From Chloroflexota bacterium (GTDB lineage Bacteria; Chloroflexota; Anaerolineae; Promineifilales; Promineifilaceae): 64,000 nt of DNA. The DNA lies in assembly GCA_035444285.1 (NCBI GenBank), contig DAOMOK010000025.1, positions 7,506 to 71,505 on the forward strand, read 5' to 3'. Position numbers and translations under genes: made by a program. Position 1 is the first letter of the stretch. Every line of letters begins with the position of its first letter. The notes beneath the pieces are model-generated. The model ran no database searches and was not told the origin of the DNA. It saw nothing but the letters and a program-made list of their open reading frames with translations. This document shows positions 6,776 through 41,975 of the stretch, piece by piece.

Positions 6776-6795
6776 AGTTCTATACCTCCTGCGCT

Positions 6796-7947: not shown

Positions 7948-7991
7948 TTTCGTTTTCATCTCTGACTCCTTACAATTTCAAACCATGTTCA

Positions 7992-8563
7992 TTACCCAGC
8001 CTTCTTCAATAGCAAAGGAATGCCAATCAGGAGCGGCATGAGGTGATGGGTAATGGGGTAATAGATGTCGCCTGGCGTGATGATAAAAAAAACGACCAGC
8101 AAGCCCAGGTTAAATGCGATGGTCGTCCAACCAATCCAGGATGGCAGCATCTTCGCCTGGAGCAATGCGCCCCCGATAGCCGCCTGGCCCAGAAAGGCAA
8201 GTATTACGTAGACGACGATGAGCGGAGAGGAAGGTATGCGCATCGCTTCGGCCGCCGCCAGCAAGACGGCTCCGAAGAAATAGGCACTGGCACCCAACCG
8301 CGCCAGTACACGGCCGTTGGTATCTTGAAGTGTCGCCTCAAGCAGCACAAATCCGAGCGCGGTAAGGATGACTGCCGCCAGGATGGATCCACGTTCCCAC
8401 ACGAAGAGCGCCGGGCTGTGGGGCGCAGGCTGTGGGGCGCACCTCCCTGGACTCCATTCCGGCTGTTAAACAGGTACAGGCCGAGCGCCAGAGGGAGAAT
8501 AGCGGCAACTAGCAAGGCGCCTGTTACTCTTTCTTCCGTCCAAAACGCCTGGTTTGTGTTCAT
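7992..8563 (-). pseudogene. Membrane-protein paralog disrupted by a 14-bp tandem duplication
   Basis: The N-terminal frame (MNTNQAFWTEERVTGALLV...) and the C-terminal frame (WERGSILAAVILTALG...) are in different phases. They are separated by GGCTGTGGGGCGCA x2 at 8414-8441. Removing one copy joins them in frame. Confidence 0.65.
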
Positions 8564-8609
8564 GATCCTTTCCTCTCTCCTTTCGTGTCTTATCTCGCTC
8601 GTGATGGTT

Positions 8610-9242
8610 CTATGGCCACAGCAGGGCCACACCGATGGCGGCCGGCATGATGAAGGGGATGGCCGGTGCCCCGACCCCAACCAGCCACCCGGCGAAACAC
8701 AGAGTGCTCCAGCCAATCGCCGCCCAGCCCAGCGAGGGCGGCAGCAGGCCGGTACGCAGGATGCCCCATCCGATTAAGATCATCGCCACAAAACTCCCTG
8801 CATAGCCCAGGCGAAAAGCGCCATCGGTCGCATCGCGTAACGGCGGATAAATCTCCGGGATGCTTTCGGTGCGCCCCGCCTCCTCCGCTGCCCAGGTGGT
8901 CAGGCCCACGTGGAAGGCTCCATGCAGAATGCCGGTAAGACCGGTTACAAGTGCGAGCGTAAAGGCCAACAGCGCCTGTTGTTCCTCCCCGGCCCGGGCC
9001 AGTAGGCGGGCCAATAGTGCAAACCCCAACAACGGGAAAATCCAGGTGACCGAGTAGATCTCGTTCAACAGCCGGAATGTATCGGCATAGGGGGCCATCG
9101 CTGCCAGCGCGCCTCCCACCGCCGCAAAGCCGGATGCCGCCCCGTTGACAATCATGATCACAGCCGCCAGCAAGCCGATCAGCAGGCCGCTAACCAGCAG
9201 GCTGCCCGTTACTCTTTCTTCCGTCCAAAATGCCTGGTTCAT
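8610..9242 (-). CDS. Membrane protein, intact paralog of 7992-8563
   Basis: Start at MNQAFWTEERVTGSLLV (9242) mirrors the N-terminus of the pseudogene. C-terminal LLPPSLGWAAIGWS motif. Confidence 0.65.
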   Translation of the reverse strand: MNQAFWTEERVTGSLLVSGLLIGLLAAVIMIVNGAASGFAAVGGALAAMAPYADTFRLLNEIYSVTWIFPLLGFALLARLLARAGEEQQALLAFTLALVTGLTGILHGAFHVGLTTWAAEEAGRTESIPEIYPPLRDATDGAFRLGYAGSFVAMILIGWGILRTGLLPPSLGWAAIGWSTLCFAGWLVGVGAPAIPFIMPAAIGVALLWP

Positions 9243-13819: not shown

Positions 13820-16800
13820 TCAACCCCTGGCAACTACCGGCAGATACAGATCCATGGGCGCAAACTCATACGCCCCCATATCACAGCGCGCTTGCCCGTC
13901 CAGATCGCCATCCACCGGTCGGGCCACGCCTCGCTGGTCGGTTCCCGTCTGGCAGGCGCCGGCATCAATGGCCGGGCTGCCACCGCGCAGGGCTTGTGTG
14001 GGTGGCGCACCGTTGTCAGACAGCAAGGGTAGCAGGCGTGGATTCTGGCCGATGATGTTGCCCACTGTACTGCCACTAATCGTGCAATCGCTGACGTCGT
14101 CAACCAGGTTGTAGCCCTGAGAAGTAAAGCCGTAGCCACAATTGGGGCCGGCAACGGCCGCGCTATTCCCGGCCAGGATCGTGTTGCTGAGCGTAAATTC
14201 AGCCGGGCCGCCATTGAGACCGCCACCGCTGGCGGTGGCGTGGTTATGGCTGATGGTAACGTGGGTCAACATATTTGTACCGCCACCGCCAATGCCCCCG
14301 CCCGTACCAGCCTCATTCCCACTGATGGTGACGTTGGTGAGGGTTGCCGTTCCCTGGTTGTGCAGGCCGCCGCCGGAGCCGCCATTGCCCCGGTTGCCGA
14401 CAAGGGCGCTGTTGTTTACGGTCAGGTTGCCCTGATTCCAAATGCCGCCGCCGGATACAGCATCGTTGTGGCTGACAGTGACGCCATTAAGGATGAGCGT
14501 GCCGTTATTCAGGATGCCGCCGCCAGAACCGCCCGGTTCCTGGCCACGGGTGAGCGTCAACTGGTTGAGGGTGACGTTGGCGCCATTGTTGATGGTCAGG
14601 ACACGGCCGTTGCCCTGCCCGGCCAGAATCGTCTCCCCTTGCCCCAACCCGTTAATAGTCAGGTTGCCACTGATTACCATCGGCGCATCCAGCAGATAGG
14701 TCTGGTAGTTCAGGGCGATGGTCTGGTGGCCGGGCGTGGCATTGGCCTGCTCGATGGCTGCCCGCAGGCTGCAAACGCCGTCGGCCGTCTGGCATTGGTT
14801 GTCGTTGGGATCGGCGTCCGGCATATCGGCGATGGTGGTGACGATGAAGTCGGCCGGGGCGACGACGGTTGTCAGGACAAACCCACCCTGTGTCTCGGCC
14901 TGGTTGGCCTGCGCCAGCCGGAAGGAAGCCTCGGTTTCCAACCGGTCACCCGGCTGTAGCCCGGCGCTGAGTGTGGTGTGTATCTGGATCACGGCCGTAT
15001 CCCCCACCGGCAGCGCGTTCATCTGGCAGGTCACAATGCCCGCCGCCTGAGTGCAGCTTCCATCACTGCTGCTGGCCGATCCATAGTTTAGCCGCACATC
15101 CAGGGTGGCGCTGACCACCAGGTTGGTGGCCGTCAGCCCGCCGCCGACTGCCGGCGGGTTGTTGGTCAGCGACAGGGTGTGGGCCAGTGGTTGGTCGCTG
15201 GCTACCGGGTTGGACGAGGCGGTCACATCCAGCAGCAAGTCGGTCATCATCGCCACCGTCACCGGGATCGTTTTGCAGGCCGTCTGGGAAACGGCCGTTG
15301 GTTGTTTGTTACCGTCACCGTCAATGACCACCTGGTCGGTGACACACATCTCAACGTTGAAACTGCCGTTTTGGGTGAAAATGTGTTCGGCCGTGACCGC
15401 GCCATAACCACCCACCCCCTGGCTCAGAATGGGGCCGGTGACCGTGCCATCTTCCAAAATGCGTCCTTCCGGCTCCACCGGACTGCCATCGCCCCAATTT
15501 ACCGTCACCATATGCTGGTCGGGAATATCCGGGTCGTAGAAATCCACCTTGAACATCGTCTTGAAACCCCGGCCAATCTGCATGTCGTCCAGGCTGACCA
15601 GGCGCGTCAGGTCCAAACCACCACCCAATCGGTAAGCAAAGTTCTGGTTCGCCTCCGGGAAACGGGGGGCGTCGTGGATGGGCGCAATGGTCACCGTCAC
15701 CGTTTCCGGCGTGGACAGGAAGTGGGTATCATGGGCGACAAAGGTGAAGGTATCCAGGCCGTGGAAATCCAGGTTTGGTGTGTAAGTACGGTTGGCGCCG
15801 CTGCCGCTAATTGTGCCATGCGCCGGCGGCGTATCAATGTGGAAGGTCAGTGTATCCAGCGGCTCGTCGGGGTCATAGCCGCTCAACACCACGGTTGTGG
15901 GCACATCCTCTACAGTGGCAAAGGCCAATCCACGGTCGGCCTGGGGCGGGCGAAAATTACGACTGACGGCGATTTGCACCGTCGCCGGGGCACTGTTGTC
16001 CAGCCCATCGGTCACGCCAAAGGTAAAGCTGTCGGTACCCACAAAGTTGTTGTCCGACTGGTAAACAATGCGGGCGCTGGTGGGCGAGAGGGGCGTCAGC
16101 GGCGTCGTCTCGAAGACGTGCAGCAGGTCGGTGTTCTCGTCCAGCACGTAGAAATTAGTGGAATTGACCGTCACCTGTTTGGGCTGGCCGAAATCGCCCA
16201 GGACAAAGCAGGAGCCGTCACATTCAGAGATGGCCTGCCCGGCGAAGTGGCCTTCAGGAGTAAAACGCTGCACACGCTGGTTAAAGTAATCGGTGACATA
16301 GAGAATGTCGTTACCATCCAGGGCGATACCGCGCGGGCTGGCGAATTGGCCGGGGCCGCTGCCCTCCGTTTGTCCGCCGCCATTGATACCACAGGTGGCG
16401 TCGGTGCAGCTAAAACCAAAACTGCGCTGGTGGGCAATGTCGCAGCCAGGGCCAAAGTCACATTTGCCCAGCCAGCCAATCAGTTCGCCGGGGGTGAAAT
16501 TACCATGAGCATCCAGCACCGCCGGCCCCCATTTGTAGATGCGGTTTGGGCCGTCCCAACTACCGTTTTTACCCGTTGAGGCATACAGATTGCCCGCCGA
16601 ATCGAGGGCCAGGTTAGTCAAGACCGCGTCGGGGTGAGAGTAATCGGCCAGCAGCGTCGGATCGTCGGGGCCGGTAGTGTCGTACAGATATAACTCGGCC
16701 ACACCGGAAGAGATATAGCCACTGGTGACGTAGAGAATGCCCTGCCCGTCAATGAGGGCGTGCCTTGGCTGGCCGAATTGCGGCGTGGCATCGTCCATGC

Positions 16801-18802
16801 GATGCTGGACAATCAGGTTCAAATCCATATCGTATTGGCGTACCCAACTGAAGGTGCCGCCGACATTATGGCTGGCGGTGAAAAGGGAACCCAGACGCCA
16901 ATCAATATAGATACCCTTCACGTCAAAGGAGGAGGAAACCTGGTCCCAGGTACCATCAGGCCGGAATACCGCCAGCCGGTAAGAGGGGTAAGGGACGCCA
17001 AAAGAATCGCACCAGACCATGCCCTGATCGTGGACGTAGACGACGCCGTCGTCGTTAACAGCCATGAAGGTGGCGTCAACCGGCCAGTTCGTGGGTATGT
17101 ATTGCTGCCGGTGGTCGGGGTCCTGGCAATATTCCAAAAAGGAAATATCTTGAAAGTTGGACAGGCGGTAATCCTGGATGAAATAGGGGTAGAGCGGGGC
17201 GTGGAAGAAGCCGTTGCCTGGTTGTTCTCTGATTTGGAACCAGAGCGGGTCATGATCGGGGTCTTGGGCGGTAAGGGTGAGGGTGATCGGTTCGTAGGCG
17301 ATGGCTTGCGGGATATTGCCGCCAGTCTGGTTATGGGCGGTGGGTGTGTGGTTGGTGCCGGGGGCTTTGATGTTGACCACCTGCACGGCCGTGGCACTGT
17401 TGTTGGCGCTGTCGGTGGCTGTCCAGGTCACGGCCGTTTGCCCTGCCGGAAAGCGAATTTCATCTCCGGTGCAAACAACCCCTGGCCGGCTGCATCCATT
17501 GTGGCTGACGGTTGGATTTAAGTCGGCCAGGTCAAAAACGGCCGGATGGCCCAGGTTAATGGTTGCTGGAATCGTCGCCGTCTCGGTCACAATCGGCGGC
17601 GGGGCCAAAATCGTAGGGGCCAGGGTGTCCACTACAGTCAGCGTTTGCGGCAAGGTGGCCGCATTGTAGCCCCCTTGCAAGTTGTGTGGGCCACGGTCGC
17701 GCACTTCCCAGGTGATGGTATAGCTCTCATTGACGTGGGCAAATTCTGGGGCGTTTGACGAACTCAGCCGGGGATAGGGGTCGCAGTTATCGCTGACGCT
17801 AATGGTACGCTGCAAAACCGGCAGGTAGGTGCGGCGCGAAACGCCACCCGGCTCGGTTGCCTCAATGGTGACGTTGGACATGGATGTGCCTATCGTTGGG
17901 GCTACAAAGTCGGTGACGACCACGTACTGCAATTCCTCGTTATAGATGCCATGCGGGTTGGGATGGGCGGCAACCAGGAAACGCAGCGTTTTGTCGCCTA
18001 AAAACCTGGTCACGGAGAGCGCCGTTCTGAGCCTCGCACGATCCTGCCCCAGACCGGGGATGTAAATGAAGACGTAATCCATGAAGTGGATTAACGTCTC
18101 GCCGCGCCAGACGACCGGGTTGACGCCGGTAGGAAAGGTGATCTGCGACCCGTTAAAGTGGCCGCCGTGTTGGGCAGAAACGTCCACGTCGGTACTCCAA
18201 TGAACCAGTTCCGGTGTGCCCAGCTCACCCCAATCGGTCCAGGGGAAGATTTCGCTGAAAGGGGAGGGGAAGCCGAAGAGGTTGCTGTATTTACCGCTCA
18301 TGGTGGTTTGAGCAAAGGTGGCCTGGCAGTTGGCGACATTGGTGACGGTGCGTGTAGGCGGGGGATTGAGGTAAGGAGCGCAATGTTTCAGCCCCAGGTT
18401 GGCCAGGTAGGCGGCAACCGAAGGGTTGAAGTCAAGGGGAGGCGGCAGGAAGGTGAGGGGGAAAGAAAGGTTGTAGGTTCCGCCCAAGGGGAGGATGCAG
18501 GCCAGGGCGGCGGTGTTGCTCCAGTCGCCCAGATCGTTGATGGCTTCGACGCTGAGGGGACCAGGATAGGCGTTGGCGGCCACGGCCGTGGCCGCCAACG
18601 GTTCTGCCATCTTCATTGTCCACAAATCCCAAACCGCCTCCTGTTCGCCGATGTGGATGAGGGGGGCAGCGGCGGTGGGTGTGGGTTCGGGCACGGCGGC
18701 CGTGGCTACGGCCGTTGTCGTTTCCATCTGTCCTTGCAGGTGCAGCGGTGTTATCAATAAGGCAGTCAGAAAGAGAATGAAAATAAAAAGTGCGCGTTTC
18801 AT
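13820..18802 (-). CDS. Giant secreted multidomain protein (HYR/Ig-like, NHL, cadherin-like, PKD, DUF11-like, C-terminal parallel beta-helix)
   Basis: Signal peptide MKRALFIFILFLTALLITPLHLQG. NHL repeat GIALDGNDILYVTDYFNQRVQRF. Cadherin/VCBS-like DTFTFVAHDTHFLSTPETVTVTI. PKD-like VNWGDGSP...HIFTQNGSFNV. C-terminal CSLRAAIEQAN plus GGG[IL].N.G.L repeats, ending DQRGVARP...CDMGAYEF. Confidence 0.9.
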   Translation of the reverse strand: MKRALFIFILFLTALLITPLHLQGQMETTTAVATAAVPEPTPTAAAPLIHIGEQEAVWDLWTMKMAEPLAATAVAANAYPGPLSVEAINDLGDWSNTAALACILPLGGTYNLSFPLTFLPPPLDFNPSVAAYLANLGLKHCAPYLNPPPTRTVTNVANCQATFAQTTMSGKYSNLFGFPSPFSEIFPWTDWGELGTPELVHWSTDVDVSAQHGGHFNGSQITFPTGVNPVVWRGETLIHFMDYVFIYIPGLGQDRARLRTALSVTRFLGDKTLRFLVAAHPNPHGIYNEELQYVVVTDFVAPTIGTSMSNVTIEATEPGGVSRRTYLPVLQRTISVSDNCDPYPRLSSSNAPEFAHVNESYTITWEVRDRGPHNLQGGYNAATLPQTLTVVDTLAPTILAPPPIVTETATIPATINLGHPAVFDLADLNPTVSHNGCSRPGVVCTGDEIRFPAGQTAVTWTATDSANNSATAVQVVNIKAPGTNHTPTAHNQTGGNIPQAIAYEPITLTLTAQDPDHDPLWFQIREQPGNGFFHAPLYPYFIQDYRLSNFQDISFLEYCQDPDHRQQYIPTNWPVDATFMAVNDDGVVYVHDQGMVWCDSFGVPYPSYRLAVFRPDGTWDQVSSSFDVKGIYIDWRLGSLFTASHNVGGTFSWVRQYDMDLNLIVQHRMDDATPQFGQPRHALIDGQGILYVTSGYISSGVAELYLYDTTGPDDPTLLADYSHPDAVLTNLALDSAGNLYASTGKNGSWDGPNRIYKWGPAVLDAHGNFTPGELIGWLGKCDFGPGCDIAHQRSFGFSCTDATCGINGGGQTEGSGPGQFASPRGIALDGNDILYVTDYFNQRVQRFTPEGHFAGQAISECDGSCFVLGDFGQPKQVTVNSTNFYVLDENTDLLHVFETTPLTPLSPTSARIVYQSDNNFVGTDSFTFGVTDGLDNSAPATVQIAVSRNFRPPQADRGLAFATVEDVPTTVVLSGYDPDEPLDTLTFHIDTPPAHGTISGSGANRTYTPNLDFHGLDTFTFVAHDTHFLSTPETVTVTIAPIHDAPRFPEANQNFAYRLGGGLDLTRLVSLDDMQIGRGFKTMFKVDFYDPDIPDQHMVTVNWGDGSPVEPEGRILEDGTVTGPILSQGVGGYGAVTAEHIFTQNGSFNVEMCVTDQVVIDGDGNKQPTAVSQTACKTIPVTVAMMTDLLLDVTASSNPVASDQPLAHTLSLTNNPPAVGGGLTATNLVVSATLDVRLNYGSASSSDGSCTQAAGIVTCQMNALPVGDTAVIQIHTTLSAGLQPGDRLETEASFRLAQANQAETQGGFVLTTVVAPADFIVTTIADMPDADPNDNQCQTADGVCSLRAAIEQANATPGHQTIALNYQTYLLDAPMVISGNLTINGLGQGETILAGQGNGRVLTINNGANVTLNQLTLTRGQEPGGSGGGILNNGTLILNGVTVSHNDAVSGGGIWNQGNLTVNNSALVGNRGNGGSGGGLHNQGTATLTNVTISGNEAGTGGGIGGGGTNMLTHVTISHNHATASGGGLNGGPAEFTLSNTILAGNSAAVAGPNCGYGFTSQGYNLVDDVSDCTISGSTVGNIIGQNPRLLPLLSDNGAPPTQALRGGSPAIDAGACQTGTDQRGVARPVDGDLDGQARCDMGAYEFAPMDLYLPVVARG

Positions 18803-31669: not shown

Positions 31670-32887
31670 ATGATCGCTCATTCGATTCCACAACCAACAA
31701 CTTTTATCGGCCGTGATGACGAGCTACGCGATATTTCCGCGCTCATGCACAACCATCTTTGCCGCCTGCTAACACTGGTTGGCCCCGGCGGCATCGGCAA
31801 GACTCGGCTGGCGCTAGAGATAGCCAGCAGCCAGCAGGATTTGTTTCCCGATGGTGTTCATCTCACCTACCTGCAAGCAACCCCCTCGTCGGATTTCCTG
31901 GTTTCGGCCGTTGCCGAATCGCTGGATTTCCGCTTTCAACCGGACGGCGATTCCCAATCCCAGTTAATCAATTATCTTCGCCATCAATCGCTCCTGCTGG
32001 TGCTGGACAATTTTGAGCATCTCGCCGATGGGGCGGCGTTTGTCGGTGATATTTTGGCGGCGGCAACGGCCGTTAAACTGCTGGTCACGTCACGAGAACG
32101 GCTCTCCTTGCAGGAAGAATGGGTCTATGAGGTGCCTGGGCTGGACTGCCCGGCGCACGACGGCGATCCTGATATTGAAGCGTATGGGGCGGTGCGATTG
32201 TTTGTCCATAGCGCCCGCCGGGCCTCCCCCCATTTTCGCCTGACAAAGCAGTACAGACCGCCGGTGGCCCGTATCTGCCGCCTGGTTGGGGGGATGCCGC
32301 TGGGGATTGAGCTGGCCGCCGCCTGGACGCGGGCGCTGCCTTGCGACGAGATCGCCCATGAAATCGAACATAGTCTGGACATATTAGAAACATCCGCCCG
32401 CAACGTGCCGCCGCGCCACCGCAATATGCGGGCTGTATTTGCGCCCACCTGGCAGCTTTTGTCGGCGGAGGAGCAGCATGTTTTTATGAAGCTGTCGGTT
32501 TTTCGCGGCGGTTTCACCCGCCAGGCGGCCGAGTCCGTTGCCAGCGCGACCATGCGCACGTTGCTCTCGTTGGTGGATAAGTCGCTCTTGCGATTGGATG
32601 GGAACGGCCGTTACACCCTCCACGAACTGCTGCGCCAATACGGCGAGGAACAGTTGCACAACTCCCCGCCAGAGCAAGAACAGACCCTTGATCTGCATCG
32701 CGCCTGTTATATGGCCCTCCTGGCTCGGTGCGAACAGATGATTGTTTTCCGGGGACAGTCAAAAGAAGCCCTGAAGATCATGAAAAACGAACTGGAAAAC
32801 ATGCGGATGGCCTGGCGGCGAGCCGTCTGGCAGGGGCAGTTTGCGGAGATTGCCCACGGTGCGGAGGGATTATGGACCTTCTACTGA
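31670..32887 (+). CDS. NB-ARC-type STAND ATPase (no N-terminal effector domain), ending at an in-frame TGA
   Basis: FIGRDDELRDI...LVGPGGIGKTRLALEIA, then LLLVLDNFEH, then a winged-helix part SVFRGGFTRQAAESV. Confidence 0.8.
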   Translation: MIAHSIPQPTTFIGRDDELRDISALMHNHLCRLLTLVGPGGIGKTRLALEIASSQQDLFPDGVHLTYLQATPSSDFLVSAVAESLDFRFQPDGDSQSQLINYLRHQSLLLVLDNFEHLADGAAFVGDILAAATAVKLLVTSRERLSLQEEWVYEVPGLDCPAHDGDPDIEAYGAVRLFVHSARRASPHFRLTKQYRPPVARICRLVGGMPLGIELAAAWTRALPCDEIAHEIEHSLDILETSARNVPPRHRNMRAVFAPTWQLLSAEEQHVFMKLSVFRGGFTRQAAESVASATMRTLLSLVDKSLLRLDGNGRYTLHELLRQYGEEQLHNSPPEQEQTLDLHRACYMALLARCEQMIVFRGQSKEALKIMKNELENMRMAWRRAVWQGQFAEIAHGAEGLWTFY

Positions 32888-34189
32888 ATGACGGGGCTGA
32901 ACCGGGATGGCGCCGCCCTTTTCCGCTGGTCAGCGGATTGCCTGCGTGAGAATGTTTACGAACCTGAAGAGGAACGGCAGCGACTGCTGGCGCTGCTTCT
33001 GGCGTTCGAGGGCCAGTGCCGCATACCCCTCTCTTATGAGGCTGCCAGAGGGCTGGCGCAGGAAAGCCTGGCGATGATGCGCCACCTGCCGGTGAGCAGA
33101 GAGACGGTTCATGCCATCGTCATTGGGCAGGTATTTGCCGCTGATAAAAGTGAAAAAACGCAGCTCATCCAGGAAGCGCTCAACATTGCCAGAGCGAATG
33201 ATTATGGCTGGTGGATTGCCAAACTGACTGTTGACCTGGCGCACCAGGCCATGGGGGATGGTGACCTGGAGCAGGCGGAGAGGCTGTTGCAGGAAGCTTT
33301 GGTCGTTTGTCGGGAAACCAAGGAGCCTATCCAGACGGTTCATGCGTTGATGGGGTTGAGTGGGCTGGCTTACAATCACCATGATTATGCCGGAGCGCAG
33401 CAGCGGGCACAGGAGGCGCTGGCGTTGGCACAGGAGATGGATTACACGGCCGGTACCCTGCGGGCTACGGCGGCCGTGGCCGATCATGCCCTGCTGCAAG
33501 GGGATTATGCCACCGCCTATGCCTACTCTCAAACGACAGTTAGGCTGTGCCAGGAACAGGAAAATCGGGTAGATGGCGCTTTTCAGTTGCGCCGCCTCGG
33601 TTCGGCCGCCTGTGGGCTGGGGCATTACGAGGAGGCCCGCCGTTATTTCTACGAGGGGCTGCAAACGGCCGTAGATGCGGGCAATGAAGCGGTCACGCTG
33701 GATGTGATGGGGGAAGCGGCCTGGCTGCTGCATGGCTGCGGCCAGACGGGCCGGGCGGCCGCACTGGCCGGCTTTGTTCTCAACCATCCCGCCCGCCTGG
33801 ACATCATCAAAAGGCGCTTAACCAGTCTGCTGACTGAGTTGGAGGGTGTGTGGCCAATGGAGATGCTGGCAACGGCCGTTGCCCAGGGCAAGACGCTTGA
33901 TTTCGATAAAACGGTGCAAGAACTGCTGGCGGAATTGGGACGGCCGTTGCCAGACACCAAGCGCGTGGGGGAACTACCCGGTCCCCAGCCAGCGGTTGAT
34001 CCCCTGACGGAACGCGAGTTAGAGGTTCTGCAACTGATCGCCGAGGGTTTATCCAACTACGATATCGCCGTCCGGCTTTTTGTCGGGGTAAGTACCGTCA
34101 AAACCCATGTCAACCGCATTTTCAGCAAATTGGGCGTGAAAAACCGAACGCAGGCCGTAGCCCGCGCCAGGGAACTCCACTTACTTTAA
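32888..34189 (+). CDS. TPR + LuxR-type HTH protein, same frame as and contiguous with 31670-32887
   Basis: C-terminal LTERELEVLQLIAEGLSNYDIAVRLFVGVSTVKTHVNRIFSKLGVKNRTQAV (GerE/LuxR HTH). The ATG directly follows the TGA of the upstream ORF, in the same phase. Confidence 0.8.
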   Translation: MTGLNRDGAALFRWSADCLRENVYEPEEERQRLLALLLAFEGQCRIPLSYEAARGLAQESLAMMRHLPVSRETVHAIVIGQVFAADKSEKTQLIQEALNIARANDYGWWIAKLTVDLAHQAMGDGDLEQAERLLQEALVVCRETKEPIQTVHALMGLSGLAYNHHDYAGAQQRAQEALALAQEMDYTAGTLRATAAVADHALLQGDYATAYAYSQTTVRLCQEQENRVDGAFQLRRLGSAACGLGHYEEARRYFYEGLQTAVDAGNEAVTLDVMGEAAWLLHGCGQTGRAAALAGFVLNHPARLDIIKRRLTSLLTELEGVWPMEMLATAVAQGKTLDFDKTVQELLAELGRPLPDTKRVGELPGPQPAVDPLTERELEVLQLIAEGLSNYDIAVRLFVGVSTVKTHVNRIFSKLGVKNRTQAVARARELHLL

Positions 34190-34334
34190 GGCCAGATTAC
34201 CCCAACTCCACCCAACCCCCAACTGAATATCCATCAAAAGGTGGACGACGCTGCCTGGCTATGCCTTTATCCTCAATCAAAAATTTATAACGCGATTTAC
34301 CAAATCGCATCACCCTTTTAAAGGAGACAAAAAG

Positions 34335-34739
34335 ATGAACAAGACATTTGCACAGATGGCGTCCGAGGCTTTTGCCCAGGTACCGGCGATTAGCCCGGCC
34401 GAAGCCCGGTCACGGCTAGAACAGGACTCCCACATCCTGGTGATTGACGTGCGCGATGCGGCCGACATCGCCGGGACAGGTTCGGTGCCAGGTGCGGTGA
34501 ACATCTCATTGGGCAGCCTGACTTATAGGGCTGACCATGAAGTTCCCGAAGATTGGCGCGATCCGGTGCTGGCGGACCATTCTCGCCCCATCATCACCAC
34601 CTGTATTCTAGGCCCATTGGGCGCGCTGGGCGGCAAACTGCTGCACGATATGGGCTTTACCAATGTTTCGATTCTGGAAGGTGGGGTTCAGGGCTGGATA
34701 GATGCTGGCTTCCCGACTGAACAGCCGCGTACCGCCTAG
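34335..34739 (+). CDS. Single-domain rhodanese sulfurtransferase
   Basis: 134 aa. Active-site loop [11 protein letters not shown], followed by [12 protein letters not shown]. Confidence 0.8.
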
Positions 34740-34745
34740 GAGGGG

Positions 34746-35609
34746 ATGATGTCTGACTACGCTTATCCTGAAATGCTGGCCAGCCCACAATGGGCGGCCG
34801 ACCATCTGAATGATCCAAACGTGCGCTTTGTCGAGGCTGGCTTTAACCCGGCCGCCTATGACTCAGGTCACATTCCAGGAGCCGTTTATTGGTGTTGGAA
34901 CGGCGACATCTTGCAGGCGGGCAGCCGCGATATTCTGAGCAAGACGGCCGTAGAGGCATTGCTTTCCCGCTCAGGAATTGACAACCAGACCACAATTGTA
35001 GTGTACGATGGCTTTAGTAATCTACTGGCAGCCATGGCTCTCTGGATGCTGAAGATATATGGCCATCAAGACGTGCGCTTGCTAGACGGTGAACGGAGGA
35101 AGTGGACAAGCGACGGCCGTCCACTCACCACGGATGCACCTTCCTACCAGCCAAAGCCATACTCGGCCAAAAAGCCGGATTGGACACTACGAGCGCATCA
35201 CGACCTCGTTTTGGACGGAATTGGCAGAGCAAACAGGGTGCTGGTGGATGCTCGGACGGTGGCGATGTACCGGGGTGAAGATGTCATGGGTGGTACCGTT
35301 GGCGGGCACATTCCCGGCGCAGTTAATGTACCGGCCGTGATGGAAACGGAAAACGGCCAGTTCCGCGGCTGGACCACACCAACGATGAATGAGGATGGCA
35401 CGTTCAAGTCGGCTGTTGGGCTACGCACTTTGTTTAGCGATAAAGGCATCAGCCCGGACAAAGAAGTCATCACTTATTGCGTGCGCGGCGGTCTGTCCAC
35501 GCATATGTGGTTTGTGCTGAAATACCTGTTGGGCTACCCCGAAGTGCGCGAATATGACGGCTCTTGGGCCGAATGGGGCAACCTGATCGGTGTGCCAATA
35601 TCGGTATAA
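34746..35609 (+). CDS. Two-domain thiosulfate/3-mercaptopyruvate sulfurtransferase
   Basis: HIPGAV appears in both halves. Catalytic loop ITYCVRGGLST and C-terminal YDGSWAEWG. GGAGGGG RBS. Confidence 0.85.
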   Translation: MMSDYAYPEMLASPQWAADHLNDPNVRFVEAGFNPAAYDSGHIPGAVYWCWNGDILQAGSRDILSKTAVEALLSRSGIDNQTTIVVYDGFSNLLAAMALWMLKIYGHQDVRLLDGERRKWTSDGRPLTTDAPSYQPKPYSAKKPDWTLRAHHDLVLDGIGRANRVLVDARTVAMYRGEDVMGGTVGGHIPGAVNVPAVMETENGQFRGWTTPTMNEDGTFKSAVGLRTLFSDKGISPDKEVITYCVRGGLSTHMWFVLKYLLGYPEVREYDGSWAEWGNLIGVPISV

Positions 35610-35900
35610 TCAGCCAGATGTCTGTGATAAGCATGCAACTCAGGGCAGTTGCACAGGGGCAAATTGGTGATAATTTCATCTCACCTCGGCGTTTTGGAGC
35701 AATAGGACGAAAACCTATCCTAAGGCTCAGTCAGATCGCAGTGGACGCAGACCGGTTGGGGCCAGATCATCACCTATATCGAAGCGAAACTTACCATACC
35801 GATTGATATGTCTAAACCTCACAGGTGATAAGTGGACAAAGTCAGTAAGCGTTCAGATGTCATATATGGTGGTTAAAACCATCTGTAAACCCTATATATG

Positions 35901-35938
35901 GGGGTCGTCATGTCAAAACAGCCTTTCGTACATTGATA
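35901..35938 (+). repeat. Candidate terminal inverted repeat (tnpA-proximal), diverged
   Basis: GGGGTCGTCATGTCAAAACAGCCTTTCGTACATTGATA. The GGGGTCGTC...AAAAC start resembles Tn3-family IRs, but the inner ACGCTAAG end is missing. Confidence 0.45.
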
Positions 35939-36000
35939 TTCTATGTATTTTATTCAGCGAATAACGCCATATCTGGCCTTTTCTTCTCAAAAGGCATACT

Positions 36001-38904
36001 TTAGCCCACATATACAACTGAACGGTTACCAAAGTCAGCTTCATTGATGGTGTGACCTCGTCTTCTTAATTCTTCAATAGCCGCCTGCATGTAAACCGTA
36101 TTCCAGACAGTCACAGCATTCGATAGCAGATTCAAGCAGCCAGCCAGGTTCGCCAAATCATCCGGCTGCTGTTTGCGAATCTGCCCCTTGTTATCGAAAA
36201 ACAGGAAATCCCGTAAGCCGTGTACTTCTTCCCCCTTGTTGAGTTGTACCAAAATTCGCCGTCTATTGGTTGGGTCATCCAGGTAAAAAGGAATGAAAGT
36301 GCTGCGGATGAGACGGCCGTATTCCACCAGCAATTGTGTCAGTTTATGCTGGCGAGGATAAGCCAGCATTTTGTTGATAAACGTTGAAGCCGTCACCCAA
36401 CCCATCATCATCGAAGCAGCTACGCGCAATAATTCATCCCAATCATCCACAAACAAAGCCGCCTTGAGGGGGTTTTTACTCAGAAGGGGGTTGATGTTTT
36501 GGTACTTGATACTTGTATCAAGACGATAAAGTGTGTAATCGCCAATGTCACGCAGGCGCGGCGAAAACTGCATCCCCAGCAGGTCAAAAAGAGCGAACAT
36601 CATGTCGGTGTAACCAGCGGTGTCCGTCGTATGCTCTTTAATCTTCAGAACCGTCTCGTTGTCCAGGATCGCATCCAGAGTAAAAGTAGATTCCCGAATA
36701 CGAGGCGGTGTAACCAGGACACGATACTGGGAAAGCTGGTCAGATGTCCAGGTGATGACGCTCAAGCCACGCCCAAAGCCAAAGTAACGGGGCAGTGGCG
36801 AGGCTTTGTTGGTCTTACGCGCCACCGCGAATCGCTGTCCATCCGATGAAGAAAACGTGCCGCTGCCCCAATACTGGCTGAGAGGTTGTTGGTATTGAAA
36901 GTTGACTAACACATCTGTCGCTGCCTGTAAGGTCTCCTCCCGGATGTACCAGTTGGTACACCAGAGCAGCTGGTCATAAGACAGGTCGCTCAAATCGGCC
37001 ATGCCGCTGAGCGTCATATTGCAAGCTTGCGTCAAAATAGCGGCATACAGGTGGGTAGCCAAGTCAGGGATTCGGGATGTCGCGCCGCCGGCGTGGGTTA
37101 GCTGCTGGCTAAATCCAGTCCAGGCGTCTACTTCAGCCAGAAGCTGTCCCAGTTGAATGGCCGGCAGCAAAGGCCCTGTCTTTTTGGCCAGTGGGTGCTC
37201 CTGGCGGATTTCCTCTTCCTCTTTATCCAGCGGTGACAAGACCAGTTCGCCATTCTCGAACCGGACAAATTCATTCTTGGCAAATCCCTTGTCCAGACGG
37301 GCCAGGTTCTCTTCTAATGCGGCCTGCTTCAGTTCCAGTTGCACAGCGCCATCTGCGGGGATACCCACCATCTCACAGTACGTCTGTCGTAGTTGCTCCC
37401 AACGTGCTTTCGGTATCAGGTAGCTGTCCAGATTGGCATACTGGCGGCTGCCTTCCAACCAGACGGCTCCGGAGCGAAGGGAATCACGCAGGTCGGAAAG
37501 GGCGCACATCTCATAATCGCGCCGATTAACAGTACCATCTCGATTCAAGACACGACTCCGCCATTGCGCCGGTACAAATTCAGTTGGCACTTCGGCAAAC
37601 GTCGCCGGCAACAGCGTCTCGTCGGCCTCATTCATTTCGCGCAGGACATCCAATGCTTCCAGTAAACTCTCTTTGTCGGCATAATTGTGGAAGGTCAACG
37701 CTTTCAAGAAGGCCGGGGTGAAGCGGCGAAAATAGCTGTAACGTTTATCGAAGAAATCCAGAAGGGTGCGTTTACGGCCGGCAATGAAAAAGGACTCCAC
37801 CTCATCCAGGGCTATTTGTAGGGTGTCTACTGGTACCTGTTTGTAAATGGTCGGGCGAATAGCTTCATCAGCTACCGCCTCATCCAGAACTACCTGGCTC
37901 ATGTCCCGAAAGTAGCCGATCACCGCTTGCATATGGACCATGAACTGTAACTGGAATTCCTGCAAATCGCGCTTGGATCGGCGATAGGCATCGGCCAGAC
38001 ACAGGTCAAACAGTTCGATCAGTTCATCAATCGTTTTTTCGTGCGCCCAGAGGAGAAAGGCAACCAGGATGGCATATCGTTTGGCCACCGGCTTCTTCCG
38101 TTTGAGTCCCTGGGGGCTGGTGTAACGGGACACCTGGGCCAGATAGCGAATCCGGCTGGGCGGAAGTTCATCCACCGGCCAGGTGGTCACTGCCCATTGG
38201 CGAATGAAAGCCAGTTTTTGCAGCGCTTCCAAAATATCTTTATCACTATGCCCTGTGGCAAAGCGGCGCAACCACAGGATGGGAGACTTGTCGTGTTCTT
38301 CACTGGGTATCAACAAGGTATCCAGCGACTTTTGTACCCGTGCCGACAGCGGGTTGACCAGGACTTCTATCGTTTTTGCTTCAGCCCACTGCCGGGCATC
38401 GGCCACCAACTCTTCCATTGTGGTGATCGCCGGTCGCACCAGGCGCAACTGGTAGAGCCGTTCACAGGCTTGTTGTAACAGTGTTGAGGGACGGTCATGT
38501 TCCAAAACCCGCTCGCCCAACCAGGCGATCAGGCTTTCGCGGTCGTCAGGCTGCACTCGACGAAAATCAAGGTGCTGCATCAGCACAGGCAGATGTTCGC
38601 GGCGCGTTTCGTCCCGGTCGGCATAATCGGCCAAAACGATGGGCGACAGTTGTAGCTGATTGGACACGAAAGCCACGACATTTTCCGGGGTATGGTTGAT
38701 GCTGGCCGGAAAATAGCCCAGGTAGCGCAAGCTGCACAACAGCAAGGCCAGCCCCAACCGATTTTCTCCACCCCTCCTGCTGCTAATGAGTTCCATATCG
38801 GCCGGGGTGAGCGTGAAGTAGACAATGCAATCTGCCTCAGTCACTTCATCGGGAAATTGACTCAAGCGTTCACGCTCAACCTGGCTCAAGAATCGCCGGG
38901 GCAT
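36001..38904 (-). CDS. tnpA: Tn3-family transposase
   Basis: 967 aa. N-terminal DUF4158-like FLSQVERERLSQFPDEV...NRLGLALLLCSLRYLGYFP and a C-terminal DDE region HTTDTAGYTDMMFALFDLLGMQFSPRLRD. Confidence 0.95.
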   Translation of the reverse strand: MPRRFLSQVERERLSQFPDEVTEADCIVYFTLTPADMELISSRRGGENRLGLALLLCSLRYLGYFPASINHTPENVVAFVSNQLQLSPIVLADYADRDETRREHLPVLMQHLDFRRVQPDDRESLIAWLGERVLEHDRPSTLLQQACERLYQLRLVRPAITTMEELVADARQWAEAKTIEVLVNPLSARVQKSLDTLLIPSEEHDKSPILWLRRFATGHSDKDILEALQKLAFIRQWAVTTWPVDELPPSRIRYLAQVSRYTSPQGLKRKKPVAKRYAILVAFLLWAHEKTIDELIELFDLCLADAYRRSKRDLQEFQLQFMVHMQAVIGYFRDMSQVVLDEAVADEAIRPTIYKQVPVDTLQIALDEVESFFIAGRKRTLLDFFDKRYSYFRRFTPAFLKALTFHNYADKESLLEALDVLREMNEADETLLPATFAEVPTEFVPAQWRSRVLNRDGTVNRRDYEMCALSDLRDSLRSGAVWLEGSRQYANLDSYLIPKARWEQLRQTYCEMVGIPADGAVQLELKQAALEENLARLDKGFAKNEFVRFENGELVLSPLDKEEEEIRQEHPLAKKTGPLLPAIQLGQLLAEVDAWTGFSQQLTHAGGATSRIPDLATHLYAAILTQACNMTLSGMADLSDLSYDQLLWCTNWYIREETLQAATDVLVNFQYQQPLSQYWGSGTFSSSDGQRFAVARKTNKASPLPRYFGFGRGLSVITWTSDQLSQYRVLVTPPRIRESTFTLDAILDNETVLKIKEHTTDTAGYTDMMFALFDLLGMQFSPRLRDIGDYTLYRLDTSIKYQNINPLLSKNPLKAALFVDDWDELLRVAASMMMGWVTASTFINKMLAYPRQHKLTQLLVEYGRLIRSTFIPFYLDDPTNRRRILVQLNKGEEVHGLRDFLFFDNKGQIRKQQPDDLANLAGCLNLLSNAVTVWNTVYMQAAIEELRRRGHTINEADFGNRSVVYVG

Positions 38905-38934
38905 CGTGCTGCCATTCCTATCCCACCCATGTTG

Positions 38935-39811
38935 CTAATCCACCTGGATGTTGCCCATTCGCTCCATCCGGTTGGCCAGGTCTTCTGGGGTGGGTTTGGT
39001 GTAAACCATCACGGTGTTCAAGTCGCTGTGTCCTAACAAAGCGGCCAAACCACGCAAATCATCGGGATTGGCCTTAAGATAGTGTGTGGCAAAGGTATGT
39101 CGCAGGACATGAGGGCCGAAGGGGTCCAGTTGAACACGGAGGGCATATCTTTTGAGAATACGCAGGACTCAACTGCGATGGGTCAAAGGCCCTTGCTTTC
39201 CCCACCATAACGGTGTTTCCTCCTCTTGATGCCCGACTGCCGGACCGGTTTCCAGATAATCTGCCAGGGCCTGCCGCACTTCCTGGGTTAAAGGTACCTC
39301 TCGATAGCCACCCTGTTTGCCCTCCCGCACGATGACCCATCCCGACCGGTCGCGCAGGACAACATCGCCTATTTGCAATTGGAGCAACTCCCCTACCCGC
39401 AAGCCGGTGCCGGCCAGCATTTCAATGATGGCCACATCACGGGCCGAGCCACCGTTGTGAACAGCCCGTAGTAGCCGACGTAATTGCCTGGTGGAAAGAC
39501 TTTGCGGCTGCAACGGCACCACTCGAATGGTGGTCACATCCACCGTTGGGTCGCGGGATACCTGGTCGTGAGCGAGTGCCCACCTATAACAAGGAAGAGA
39601 CAGCCACCAGGCGCTGGTTGATGGTGTTGGGAGCGGCTTTCTCGACACTTTGCTGGTACGATTTCCAATCGCGGATGTCGCGGGCAATGAGGCGCGTCGG
39701 GTCACAAGATTCCCCATATGTCCCCTGATACCAACGGGCCAGGTGATGCCAGCCGCGCCGATAGGCTTTGAGGGTATGTGAGCTGCGGCCCTGCGCCGTC
39801 AGGTGTTCCAA
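38935..39811 (-). pseudogene. Tyrosine recombinase (TnpI/XerC-like) with a frameshift and an in-frame TGA
   Basis: The N-terminal SAM-like part (TLKAYRRGWHHLARWY...INQRLVAVSSL) shifts frame near 39590. The middle part reads ARDVAIIEMLAGTGLRVGEL. After the TGA at 39169-39171 the same frame reads VLRILKRYA...PHVLRHTFATHYL...LLGHSDLNTVMVYT. Confidence 0.8.
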
Positions 39812-39866
39812 CCAGGTTTCAATGAGCCAATCGGCTGTTCTGGTGCTGCCATTTGACCTTCCAAGT

Positions 39867-39976
39867 TATTATGTTGCGAAAAATTCAGGCGTTAACTATA
39901 CAGAATTCGGGGAAGTTATGGCCTATGAGGGACGTATTGGCAACATAATGACACTTATCGCGTCTATTATGTTGCG
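39867..39976. promoter_or_regulatory. Candidate recombinase target site (three copies of ATTATGTTGC)
   Basis: GCAACATAAT (39940-39949) and ATTATGTTGC (39966-39975) form a 10-bp inverted pair with a 16-bp spacer. A further direct copy, TATTATGTTGCG, lies at 39867-39878. All sit between the recombinase 5' end and the IR. Confidence 0.45.
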
Positions 39977-40012
39977 TACCAGAACGCTGGAAAACGGAAG
40001 TTTTAACCCGAC

Positions 40013-40050
40013 CTTAGCGTACAGTTTCGTCCTTTTGCTCCAAAAACCCC
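40013..40050 (-). repeat. 38-bp Tn3-family terminal inverted repeat
   Basis: Read inward it is GGGGTTTTTGGAGCAAAAGGACGAAACTGTACGCTAAG. The GGGG start and ACGCTAAG inner end match canonical Tn3/Tn21/Tn4430-type IRs. Confidence 0.7.
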
Positions 40051-40152
40051 ATGAAGAACATTCTCGCCAAACTCCACCTCCGCAACCGGCGCCAGGCAGC
40101 CGCCTATGGCGTCGCTCGTGGCTGGCTGCCTCGCCCCAAAGGGCGCATCTAG
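40051..40152 (+). pseudogene. LuxR-type HTH C-terminal remnant abutting the transposon end
   Basis: MKNILAKLHLRNRRQAAAYGVARGWL fits the last helix of a GerE/LuxR domain (..NIL.KL.V.NR.QA...A...G). Only 33 codons remain. Confidence 0.45.
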
Positions 40153-40526
40153 CATCCCCTTCTCCCCCTTCTGGCAAAAATAGCCCTTTTCTTCCCTCCT
40201 CTGCCTTCTATGGGCCATGTCCTGCGGACTGCTTCTCCCTAAAATACAGGGTATACCCAATGTGCGACTTTTTCTTGACCTATATCTGGGCAAACATTGC
40301 CTAAAAGCAACAATTCTCCAAGATATAGACTGAGCATGCTTTTCAGGCCTATTACAGATTTTGTCATAGAGCAGTAGCAACGAATTGCAGTTTTCCATAT
40401 ATGGGCAATTAGGTGTGATTATGTTTGTTTTTCGCCATATCTGCATCTTGGAAAGTCGCACGTTAGGTAGGGTATGTCAATGAGGAAAAATTTTTGTTAC
40501 TCTGCACAACAGAGGAGGACATACAC

Positions 40527-40784
40527 ATGGCTGACCCATCTTCCTACAGCACACCACGCTGGGTAAAGATTTTTGCCCTCATCGCTGTCGTCCTGGTTCT
40601 GCTGGTTGTCATTGTAATGCTCATAATCGGTGGCGACCACGGCCCAGGTCGTCACACGCCATCTGGCGGCGCCGGCGACGCGCCAACGACCCTGGTGGTC
40701 ACATATCGCCCAGAGAACATGGCGGACAGCCCTGAACGGAGTAGCGGGAACTTTAGCTATAACCATGCCGCCTGGCCTGCGTAA
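40527..40784 (+). CDS. Small single-TM protein with GGDHGPGRH motif
   Basis: MADPSSYSTPRWVKIFALIAVVLVLLVVIVMLIIGGDHGPGRHTPSGG. GAGGAGG RBS upstream. Confidence 0.5.
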   Translation: MADPSSYSTPRWVKIFALIAVVLVLLVVIVMLIIGGDHGPGRHTPSGGAGDAPTTLVVTYRPENMADSPERSSGNFSYNHAAWPA

Positions 40785-41292
40785 GTTTGCCCTCACCATG
40801 CATATCACGTTTTCGGTTGGCTGGATTGGCGCCGTCGCTGCTTATATCGCGCTTGATATGAGCACGGCGACCAGCCAGGATGTTCAGACGTTACGCGCCG
40901 CCTATCTGGCGATGGCCCTGATTGCCGGGTACGTTATCGTCCCATAGGCCTTCGTCTCGCTGCTCACGGGGCTTGTCATGTCACTAGGGACCAGGTGGGG
41001 TTTGTTCCGGCACTATTGGGTCCTGATCTCACTCTTACTGACTGTCATTGCCACGGCCGTCTTGTTGGCTGAGACGCGGACAATCAGCTATCTTGCAGGC
41101 ATAGCCGCAGACCCGGCCACGGCCGTTGACGATCTGCGCGCCCTGGAAAGCACCCTGGTCCACTCTGTTAGCGGCCTGGTGGTATTGCTCGTGATCATGT
41201 GGCTCAATGTGTACAAGCCACGAGGTCTGACCCCCTATGGATGGCGTAAACAGCAAGAGGAGCGCAGGCAGCGGACGGTGTCTAGGCCATAA
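40765..41292 (+). pseudogene. Four-TM membrane protein interrupted by an in-frame TAG (40945-40947)
   Basis: ORFs 40765-40947 and 40978-41292 are in the same phase with no other stop. The hydrophobic segment reads across the TAG: ...LIAGYVIVP[TAG]AFVSLLTGLVMSLGTRWGLFRHYWV. Confidence 0.55.
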
Positions 41293-41422
41293 AGGGGTAA
41301 TCCGCTGGTAACGCGCTCGCATGCATGCTGTTGCTTTCTTGTCAATCACGGTCACTCACAATAAAACTTTAGCATAGGGTACAGGCCGGTCTGGCAACAG
41401 CGCCATCTGGCCTGCACGTCGC

Positions 41423-41626
41423 TTAGAACTGCGGTTGCCGGTGCGGCCGGCGCGGCTTCTTTTTGACCTTTTCGCCCATTTCCGGCCGGGCATACGCTTT
41501 GGGGGCGCGCTCAAATTCTGACTGGCACTGGGGGCAGCACAGAAAGTAGGCGACGCCTTCGTACTCGATAATGATATGCGCCTTGCTACGATTCATGCGT
41601 TTGCCGCATACGGGGTCTTTTAACAT
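41423..41626 (-). CDS. YHS/TRASH-domain metal-binding protein
   Basis: MLKDPVCGKRM...VAYFLCCPQCQSEF. GGAAGG RBS. Start set at 41626. Confidence 0.8.
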   Translation of the reverse strand: MLKDPVCGKRMNRSKAHIIIEYEGVAYFLCCPQCQSEFERAPKAYARPEMGEKVKKKPRRPHRQPQF

Positions 41627-41669
41627 GGTAAACCTTCCTTTTTGATTGATTACAACAACGAAAGCTGAT

Positions 41670-41975
41670 TTACCAGCCTGCATTGACTGTCATAGCCTGG
41701 TAGGTGTGCCGCCCATCGTTCCCGGCCTGGGCTACAGCCTCTAACAGCGCCGGAAACGTGACCAGGTCGGGGTTAAACGTGATCTGGGCACTTCCCGTGA
41801 CATGATCCACCACCACATTAGTGACGCCGTAAAGGGCAATCAAACTGTTGCCAACCCGGGCGGCGCAGTTAGGACAACCCATGCCGGCCACGGCCAGCAG
41901 CGCCAGGCGCGTTTTCTGATATTCTTCCATGGTCACTTTCTTGTGCAGCGATTGCACCTCGCAATTCTCGTTCAT
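41670..41975 (-). CDS. Heavy-metal-associated (HMA) domain protein, CopZ-like
   Basis: GMGCPNCAARVGNSL (MxCxxC-type motif) within a ferredoxin-like repeat pattern. Confidence 0.8.
   Translation of the reverse strand: MNENCEVQSLHKKVTMEEYQKTRLALLAVAGMGCPNCAARVGNSLIALYGVTNVVVDHVTGSAQITFNPDLVTFPALLEAVAQAGNDGRHTYQAMTVNAGW

Follow-up and report, generated by a model that had tools for sequence, protein, structure and literature searches.

The window analysed here is a 64,000-nt stretch of contig DAOMOK010000025.1 from a Chloroflexota bacterium (GenBank assembly GCA_035444285.1; Anaerolineae, Promineifilaceae). At 35688-40050 it carries a transposon of the Tn3 family, in which a tyrosine recombinase gene, tnpI, stands beside the transposase gene, tnpA. 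Coordinates are positions in the window, and the genes of the element were read on the minus strand. In that direction, a 38-bp terminal inverted repeat (IR), an internal resolution site (IRS), tnpI, tnpA and a second IR follow one another, with zero passenger genes. The element spans 4363 bp, or 4170 bp when a miniature inverted-repeat transposable element (MITE) and its target duplication are left out. Its parts are as follows.

40013..40050, minus strand: tnpI-proximal terminal IR, 38 bp, GGGGTTTTTGGAGCAAAAGGACGAAACTGTACGCTAAG, a canonical Tn3-family IR
39865..39975, minus strand: IRS with the candidate TnpI-binding motifs M1, X, M2, M3 and M4, from the motif pattern and its conservation in relatives
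38935..39852, minus strand: tnpI pseudogene, Xer-like tyrosine recombinase, 305 aa when intact, from DNA alignment with the tnpI genes of relatives L018 and L019 and from Pfam
36030..38904, minus strand: tnpA codons 1-958 (DUF4158, DDE_Tn3), from Pfam, a PDB match and alignment of the DDE residues
35845..36029, unstranded: 185-bp MITE in the 3′ end of tnpA, terminal inverted repeats GTAAGCGTTCAGATGT and GTAACCGTTCAGTTGT, from an inverted-repeat search and a second genomic copy
35837..35844, unstranded: 8-bp direct repeat, the target duplication of the MITE, which reads TGACTTTG on the minus strand, second copy at 36030-36037
35727..35836, minus strand: 3′ end of tnpA separated from the gene by the MITE, comprising the final 36 codons, VHLSPVRFRHINRYGKFRFDIGDDLAPTGLRPLRSD, and a TGA stop, from joining across the MITE
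35688..35724, plus strand: tnpA-proximal terminal IR, degenerate, 37 nt, GGCGTTTTGGAGCAATAGGACGAAAACCTATCCTAAG, from an inverted-repeat search and comparison with L018

An initial annotation had read the order IR, tnpA, tyrosine recombinase, repeat-rich site and IR at this locus. These parts were recovered, the left IR at another position and the repeats at 39865-39975, and its description of a minimal Tn3-family element without cargo and with the gene order of Tn4430 was supported.

One genome per species was scanned for relatives of the element. Five close relatives were found, all of them in Chloroflexota metagenome-assembled genomes (MAGs) from Anaerolineae, Anaerolinea and Candidatus Promineifilaceae. 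Relative L018, a contig of 4172 bp with an IR at each end and no MITE, encodes an intact 305-aa TnpI and an intact 994-aa TnpA; copies with about 92% nucleotide identity to the window element, L018 among them, are present in these MAGs.

We identified DUF4158 (PF13700, 5e-48) and DDE_Tn3 (PF01526, 2e-118) by Pfam in the 967-aa open reading frame (ORF) at 36001-38904 on the minus strand, and the same ORF matched Tn4430 TnpA in PDB over residues 4-951 with E=1.5e-158, in agreement with its earlier assignment as a Tn3-family tnpA of 967 aa. The TnpA of the intact relative matched NCBIfam NF033527 at 2.5e-270. The catalytic DDE residues of Tn4430 TnpA are D679, D751 and E881 (PMC9579193); D688, D761 and E892 of the window TnpA align with them, and the DDE triad is intact. 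The end of this ORF is of other origin, as its foreign 9-aa tail, GNRSVVYVG, and its stop codon are provided by the MITE. The non-conserved tail had first been taken as decay of TnpA; it is MITE sequence, inserted with an 8-bp target duplication, and the odd C-terminus is thus due to the insertion of the MITE in the 3′ end of tnpA. When the MITE and one copy of the duplication were removed, the residues ...INEADF joined VHLSPVRFRHINRYGKFRFDIGDDLAPTGLRPLRSD, giving a 994-aa TnpA with its stop codon 2 nt from the IR at 35688-35724. This restored TnpA has the same length and C-terminus as those of L018 and L019, and the window protein is 94.7% identical to L018 TnpA. The ratio of non-synonymous to synonymous divergence (dN/dS) of tnpA was 0.08-0.09 against L018 and L019.

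The 185-bp insert is short and non-coding, carries 16-nt terminal inverted repeats and a target duplication, and occurs in multiple copies, and in this form it is a classical bacterial MITE. A self-search of the element against the genome identified a second 185-bp copy on another contig (G000:C38:36881-37065), which is 92% identical, has exactly the same limits and has a separate 8-bp duplication, TATTTCTC, around it. In L018, L019 and L022, the corresponding tnpA site has no MITE. Its family in the genome counts 26 members with common GTAASCGTTCAG ends, 24 of 93/94 bp and two of 185 bp, and most copies are bounded by 8-bp duplications. Examples of the 93/94-bp form lie at C1:276503-276596 and C8:108850-108943, and one 185-bp copy was also seen in a same-genus genome (G005:C442:6261-6444). 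Simple pairing of terminal repeats within 4 kb over the whole genome found no autonomous partner. The GTAASCGTTCAG ends are unrelated to Tn3 IRs, unlike those of the Tn3-derived inverted-repeat miniature elements (TIMEs).

Tn3-family transposons have a TnpA of about 1000 aa with DUF4158 and a Tn3-type DDE domain, IRs of about 38 bp reading GGGG...TAAG, and a 5-bp target duplication. At the window element, we found a canonical IR at 40013-40050, where a right-hand IR had been placed before, and its partner at 35688-35724. The former differs at one position from the matching IR of L018 and, when compared with the IR of Tn4430, agrees at 21 of 38 positions, among them those of the GGGG and ACGCTAAG ends. 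The latter starts with GGCG and ends with TAAG, and differs from the same IR in L018 by a 1-nt deletion and four substitutions; the GGCG start is common to L018, L022 and L024. In the inverted-repeat search of 35000-41000, the top pair joined 35692-35725 with 40012-40045 (34 nt, 82% complementary), and a 20-nt IR core with at most three mismatches gave three matches in the window against 0.01 expected by chance. The initial annotation had also considered that the real IR pair might enclose the nearby metal genes. Because the sole leftward-facing IR of the element type on the contig is the one at 40013-40050, as found in a genome-wide IR search, the IR pair does not enclose these genes, which lie to the right of the element.

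Upstream of tnpA, three ORF fragments with tyrosine-recombinase domains were found at 38935-39811, and Pfam detected Phage_integrase and SAM-like domains on these pieces. Together with TnpI homology, this supports the view that a tyrosine recombinase takes the place of a serine resolvase. Intact TnpI of L018 scored about 1e-50 against XerC/XerD models and was 27% identical to Tn4430 TnpI (E=3e-34). It was also 31-34% identical to TnpIs that adjoin a Tn3 transposase in Legionella or lie in a Tn3-element context in Bacillus. Compared with L018 and L019, the window tnpI has lost 1 nt between 39827 and 39826 and gained 1 nt at 39590, both outside long homopolymers, and the TCA or TCG codon of relatives is replaced at 39169-39171 by a nonsense TGA. 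Of the single frameshift and TGA first reported for this gene, the TGA held; the frameshifts are two. The dN/dS of tnpI against L018 and L019 was 0.16-0.18.

The repeat-rich site that had been noted beside the recombinase gene was located at 39865-39975. From the tnpI-proximal IR towards tnpI, its motifs are:

39964-39975: M1 (GCAACATAAT), direct
39954-39963: X, degenerate half-site (ACGCGATAAG), 4 bp from M2
39940-39949: M2, inverted motif
about 39915-39927: M3, degenerate direct motif
39865-39877: M4, immediately upstream of the tnpI ribosome-binding site

The motif GCAACATAAT has three exact occurrences between the IR and tnpI, as M1, as M2 in inverted orientation and as M4, while M3 is degenerate in the window copy and recognisable in relatives (AAGCATAAT). 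The block is kept in L018, L019, L022 and L024, with variable flanks. X and M2 end in CATAA and TTATG around a 6-bp centre, and the same arm ends surround the 6-bp centre of dif, the XerCD site of E. coli. This dif-like core fits the XerC/XerD-like scores of TnpI. In Tn4430, the IRS consists of two inverted motifs, IR1 and IR2, 4 bp apart and the direct accessory motifs DR1 and DR2, with a common 9-bp core (PMC2847244). We compared the motif CAACATAAT with the TnpI-binding motif of Tn4430, CAACACAAT, as read from locus L055, and found that one of nine positions differs. X and M2 also stand in the same 13-bp start-to-start register as IR1 and IR2 of Tn4430 and as the pair in relative L021 (73% identical), where the register is exactly 13 bp. 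In the window lineage, M1 lies 12 bp beyond X/M2, an offset that looks like a 12-bp duplication. An inverted core pair accompanied by direct accessory motifs is thus present as a sequence pattern and conserved in relatives, and we propose that X/M2 would form a dif-like core at which TnpI binds and cuts, with M1, M3 and M4 as putative accessory motifs. The motif CAACAYAAT was not found upstream of tnpI in Legionella, in Clostridium, in a Tn5401-like element of B. mycoides, at the second tnpI of the window genome (contig C54) or in relative L020, and it is therefore not universal to TnpI elements.

In a same-genus genome, a 226-bp IR-IR mini-element of the same Tn3 lineage (L034, G003:C37, 1502-1727) is bordered by a perfect 5-bp duplication, TTACT, so this type of IR is mobilised in the Tn3 manner. 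Such IR-IR mini-derivatives, as in TIMEs, were found in the same genus and in the same genome.

Taken together, these results make it very probable that 35688-40050 is one inactivated copy of an approximately 4.17-kb, cargo-free, replicative Tn3-family transposon that circulates in Chloroflexota (Anaerolineae/Promineifilaceae). By analogy with the family, an intact copy would use its 994-aa DDE TnpA to bind the 38-bp IRs and to make cointegrates by paste-and-copy transposition, and its Xer-like TnpI would resolve these cointegrates at the IRS between IR and tnpI.

We then compared the element with Tn4430 of B. thuringiensis (X07651), which was read from plasmid NC_018489.1 (locus L055), where it is 4149 bp long and flanked by the duplication TACTA. 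The two share the order and orientation IR-IRS-tnpI-tnpA-IR without passenger genes, 38-bp IRs of the form GGGG...ACGCTAAG with the tnpA stop adjoining the IR, and an IRS that immediately precedes tnpI and combines direct repeats with an inverted pair in the 13-bp register; their sizes are nearly equal, 4170 bp (without the MITE) and 4149 bp. They differ in the proteins, with identities of 32.7% for TnpA and 27% for TnpI, and in the host, which is a member of Chloroflexota here and of Bacillota for Tn4430, and the window copy reads as dead. The accessory motifs lie at +26 and +73 from the inverted motif here, against +49 and +85 in Tn4430, and the window lineage has the extra 12 bp and the extra motif M1 beside the core.

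The TnpA identity to Tn4430 is about the same as that to Tn3, TnAs1 and TnAs3. In a TnpA tree of 17 sequences, a sample outside which the Tn4651, Tn163, IS1071 and Tn3000 subgroups lie, the Chloroflexota clade was sister to TnpAs from Rubrobacter, Hymenobacter, Mycobacterium and Rhodococcus plasmids (support 98/99), whereas Tn4430 TnpA grouped with TnpAs of Tn1546 and of two other Bacillota, Alkalihalophilus and Clostridium (100/100). The approximately unbiased (AU) test rejected a joint Chloroflexota-Tn4430 clade (p=3.4e-6). By TnpA phylogeny, the element is outside the Tn4430 subgroup. The Tn4430-like reading, for which the initial annotation had named TnpA phylogeny as the refuting test, thus stands for the layout and the resolution module and fails for the TnpA lineage, which falls outside the Tn4430/Tn1546 clade. 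On the published TnpA tree, Tn5401 and TnBth4 belong to the Tn3 subgroup and Tn4430 to a subgroup of its own (PMC7157771). As the TnpI-type elements known so far thus occupy separate parts of that tree, TnpA phylogeny cannot refute a reading that concerns architecture. We conclude that the element is Tn4430-like in layout and resolution module, and not in TnpA lineage.

Among 190 curated elements in 2020, the only TnpI carriers were Tn4430, Tn5401 and TnBth4, all from Bacillus (PMC7157771). In Tn5401 and TnBth4, as in the window element, tnpI and tnpA are colinear and tnpI is preceded by the resolution site (PMC7157771), and the Tn5401-like TnpI of B. mycoides is 31% identical to L018 TnpI. 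Tn5401 and TnBth4 differ in carrying a ParE/ParD toxin-antitoxin pair upstream of tnpI, and none is present in the window element. The nearest TnpAs outside Chloroflexota, at 37-40% identity, are the Tn3-family transposases on the Rubrobacter, Hymenobacter, Mycobacterium and Rhodococcus plasmids. These adjoin arsenic, metal or efflux genes, and no tyrosine recombinase is annotated alongside them in what is an incomplete annotation. A full-text literature search found no paper linking TnpI-type Tn3 elements to Chloroflexota.

Relative L020 (SLGK01000256.1, 4402-9022) combines a TnpA that is 77% identical with a TnpI of 33% identity, and it has another repeated motif upstream of tnpI, CTTCTGATAAT. 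No 5-bp duplication was found at the ends of L020. The gap between the two identities, together with the different IRS motif, shows that the resolution module was exchanged within the Chloroflexota lineage. One could tentatively go further and regard the Chloroflexota elements as an undescribed Tn3 lineage, in which a TnpI/IRS module of Tn4430 type, with a near-identical motif and the 13-bp register, is joined to a TnpA of another clade, the module has been swapped within the lineage (L020), and a five-motif IRS has arisen with a 12-bp duplication by the dif-like core; the same proposal allows that the element may also be the transposition module of a 39.9-kb island at 157-40050. We consider this wider proposal possible, at a level of confidence far below that for the element itself.

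The flanks of the element were then examined for signs of its insertion. No 5-bp target duplication was found at the true ends, where the flanks ACCTC and ATGAA are unrelated. Next to the tnpI-proximal IR lies the following feature.

40051..40152, plus strand: LuxR/GerE-type gene remnant, 33 codons MKNILAKLHLRNRRQAAAYGVARGWLPRPKGRI and then a stop, with GerE as its only Pfam match

A LuxR-type remnant abutting the right-hand IR had been reported before and is indeed present, with a weak, sub-threshold GerE match (E=0.13, profile positions 38-55 of 57). Searches for the 5′ part of the gene beyond the opposite end of the element, next to the other IRs and elsewhere were negative, and BLASTP gave no alignment between the 33-aa remnant and the neighbouring LuxR protein. 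The missing 5-bp duplication and the absence of the LuxR 5′ part from the other side indicate that one flank was probably rearranged after insertion, and an adjacent deletion that removed the LuxR 5′ part would be a plausible route. The element was not found in any of eight same-genus genomes, and its flanks (34488-35687 and 40051-41250) have no syntenic counterpart in them. A search for an empty site with the joined flanks in these eight genomes returned only a paralogous rhodanese fragment. As the flanks match nothing but this paralogue there, strain specificity holds for the rhodanese block as well as for the copper block, and the element sits in strain-specific, acquired DNA.

A third IR-like end, GGCGTTTTTGTAGCAAAAGGACAAAACTTTACGTTTGA, lies at 157-194 (C25:7662-7699), where it faces rightwards and abuts the truncated start of a Trans_reg_C (SARP-like) gene. 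It raises the question of whether the element was the transposition module at the right end of an approximately 39.9-kb unit, bounded by the IRs at 157-194 and 40013-40050 and once mobile as a whole, with regulator, secreted-protein and rhodanese genes as cargo. The outer 5 nt of the two ends, ATGCA at 157 and ATGAA at 40050, agree at four of five positions (chance about 1.6%), truncated regulator genes stand on both outer flanks, and both the enclosed DNA and the flanks are non-syntenic in same-genus genomes. However, the flanking fragments derive from different genes, a Trans_reg_C N-terminus and a GerE C-terminus, with no joint frame, and the IR at 157 lacks the canonical TAAG at its inner end. 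Moreover, a 128-bp unit of this IR recurs at C50:17310-17437 with 98% identity beside an unrelated transposase gene, no relative carries the 39.9-kb unit, and L018 shows that the 4.17-kb element is complete on its own. We therefore regard the larger unit as unlikely, although among the alternatives to a self-contained 4.17-kb element it keeps the most ground; the solo IR at 157-194 leaves a small residual doubt on the left side.

To judge the state of the self-contained element, we considered its lesions together. By these the window copy is dead, because tnpI has two frameshifts and a TGA, TnpA has lost its C-terminal 36 residues, the tnpA-side IR carries five changes, no target duplication is left, and no other full transposase was found. 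The lesions in tnpI and tnpA and the degenerate IR also support the decay that the initial annotation had described. The window TnpA is the only full-length Tn3 transposase in the 7.7-Mb genome. The remaining Tn3 transposase sequences amount to two pieces, one at C25:81-911 from the N-terminal part with 28% identity and one on C54 with DUF4158, so the assembly holds no other full-length transposase to act in trans, and a check of the genome for intact copies, as had been advised, gave none. The dN/dS values of the window tnpA and tnpI against L018 and L019 were the same as those between the two intact relatives. Such low values (0.08-0.18) point to purifying selection during nearly all of the divergence, which suggests that inactivation was recent. 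The likely series of events would begin with insertion of the transposon, followed by entry of the MITE into tnpA, loss of tnpI and rearrangement of one flank. The MITE replaced the C-terminal tail from a point 36 codons before the tnpA end, and the loss of this tail would be expected to abolish TnpA activity.

Several observations weigh against this account of a dead copy of a circulating transposon. The DDE triad and all recognised TnpA domains are intact. The assembly has 74 contigs and 6.8% contamination, so that an intact copy could have been collapsed or missed. No full-length relative with both flanks was recovered, since a metagenome scan gave nine mostly short contigs and none was usable for target duplications, and the 5-bp duplication was seen only at the mini-element. 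Finally, the MAG and the independent contig described below may have been built from one set of reads.

The intact catalytic residues raise the possibility that the copy still transposes and is defective only in resolution, with a TnpA of 958+9 aa acting on both IRs and host recombination resolving the cointegrates. The intact DUF4158 and DDE_Tn3 domains, an essentially wild-type IR on the tnpI side and a tnpA without excess non-synonymous change would all be compatible with this. However, the C-terminal tail of Tn4430 TnpA is one of the two interfaces that close the dimer, and it is the corresponding tail that was lost here (PMC9579193). In addition, the 1-nt deletion in the tnpA-side IR shifts the terminal GGCG against the inner part, on top of four substitutions, and the genome has no second copy and the window copy no target duplication. 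Continued transposition is thus improbable, about on a par with the larger unit or slightly below it, and we retain the view that the copy is inactive.

It was also considered whether the frameshifts, the stop codon and the MITE junctions are assembly or sequencing artefacts of the MAG, the real element being intact, as the fragmentation and contamination of the assembly might suggest. A Logan assembly contig of run SRR1763385, made with a different assembler, was 100% identical over 8904 bp (33001-41904), every lesion included. The MITE, moreover, is one of a family and its target duplication is clean, and the indels are not in long homopolymers. An artefact of this kind is very unlikely.

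Least probable of all, and close to negligible, are the limits first proposed, 35901-40050, by which a left IR at about 35901 would have diverged and the TnpA C-terminus drifted by itself: their 4150-bp span agrees with the 4149 bp of Tn4430 and GGGGG opens the sequence at 35901, but this position lies within a MITE with its own terminal repeats, 8-bp duplication and 92%-identical second copy, a far better IR exists at 35688-35724, the 36 absent tnpA codons are intact between the MITE and that IR, and relatives are continuous across the MITE site. The left IR at 35901 was accordingly rejected, as the position belongs to the MITE (35845-36029) and the true partner begins 213 bp further left. 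The length match to Tn4430 at about 4150 bp had rested on these wrong limits; the actual figures are those given above.

The element at 35688-40050 is a real but ordinary mobile-element fossil that adds one member to a known transposon type. The main value of the analysis lies in correct annotation, as a puzzling protein tail and a diverged IR become a clean series of events. It also extends the TnpI-type Tn3-family transposons beyond Bacillus, into Chloroflexota, and shows transposase and resolution modules reshuffled within one lineage. L018, with both genes intact, is usable for bench testing, and the active-looking MITE family is a possible marker of recent events in the genome.

Two relatives may carry additional DNA. 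L021 (JBCCSO010000182.1) is an 8298-bp contig holding an 8.3-kb derivative whose two terminal 38-bp IRs, one at either end of the contig, are identical; directly behind its tnpA stands a degenerate IR, followed by about 4 kb of extra DNA, which may be cargo captured on the tnpA side. On the Ca. Promineifilaceae chromosome OZ244995.1 (L022/L064, G023:C1:1067144-1081567), tnpA has a 518-bp deletion and a 1.25-kb insertion, and 9.5 kb separate the IRS from the matching tnpI-side IR upstream of it. This interval contains genes for GH15 and GH66 glycosidases, for ABC sugar transport and for a ROK regulator, besides an insertion sequence (IS), and it may represent either cargo or chromosome DNA unrelated to the element.

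Elsewhere in the window genome, additional IRs of the element type were observed. On contig C54 (1-9000, L062), a 294-bp IR-IRS-IR mini-element (56-349) carries the same ATTATGTTGC motifs, and a 7.5-kb IR-bounded unit (56-7601) contains an HTH-AAA-TPR regulator and a PKD-domain protein and no transposase. A second tyrosine recombinase gene lies at 7757-8650 on this contig, beside the DUF4158 fragment, which is apparently a tnpA cut by the IR at 7564-7601. On contig C50 (L063), two more IRs of the same type at 14677-14714 and 17311-17348 point away from each other, and a DDE_Tnp_1_6 transposase gene starts 128 bp on from the second and runs off the contig. Within the window itself, to the left of the element, a MalT/LuxR-type STAND regulator at 31670-34189 is present as two abutting ORFs, one with NB-ARC/AAA (31670-32887) and the other with TPR and GerE (32888-34189).

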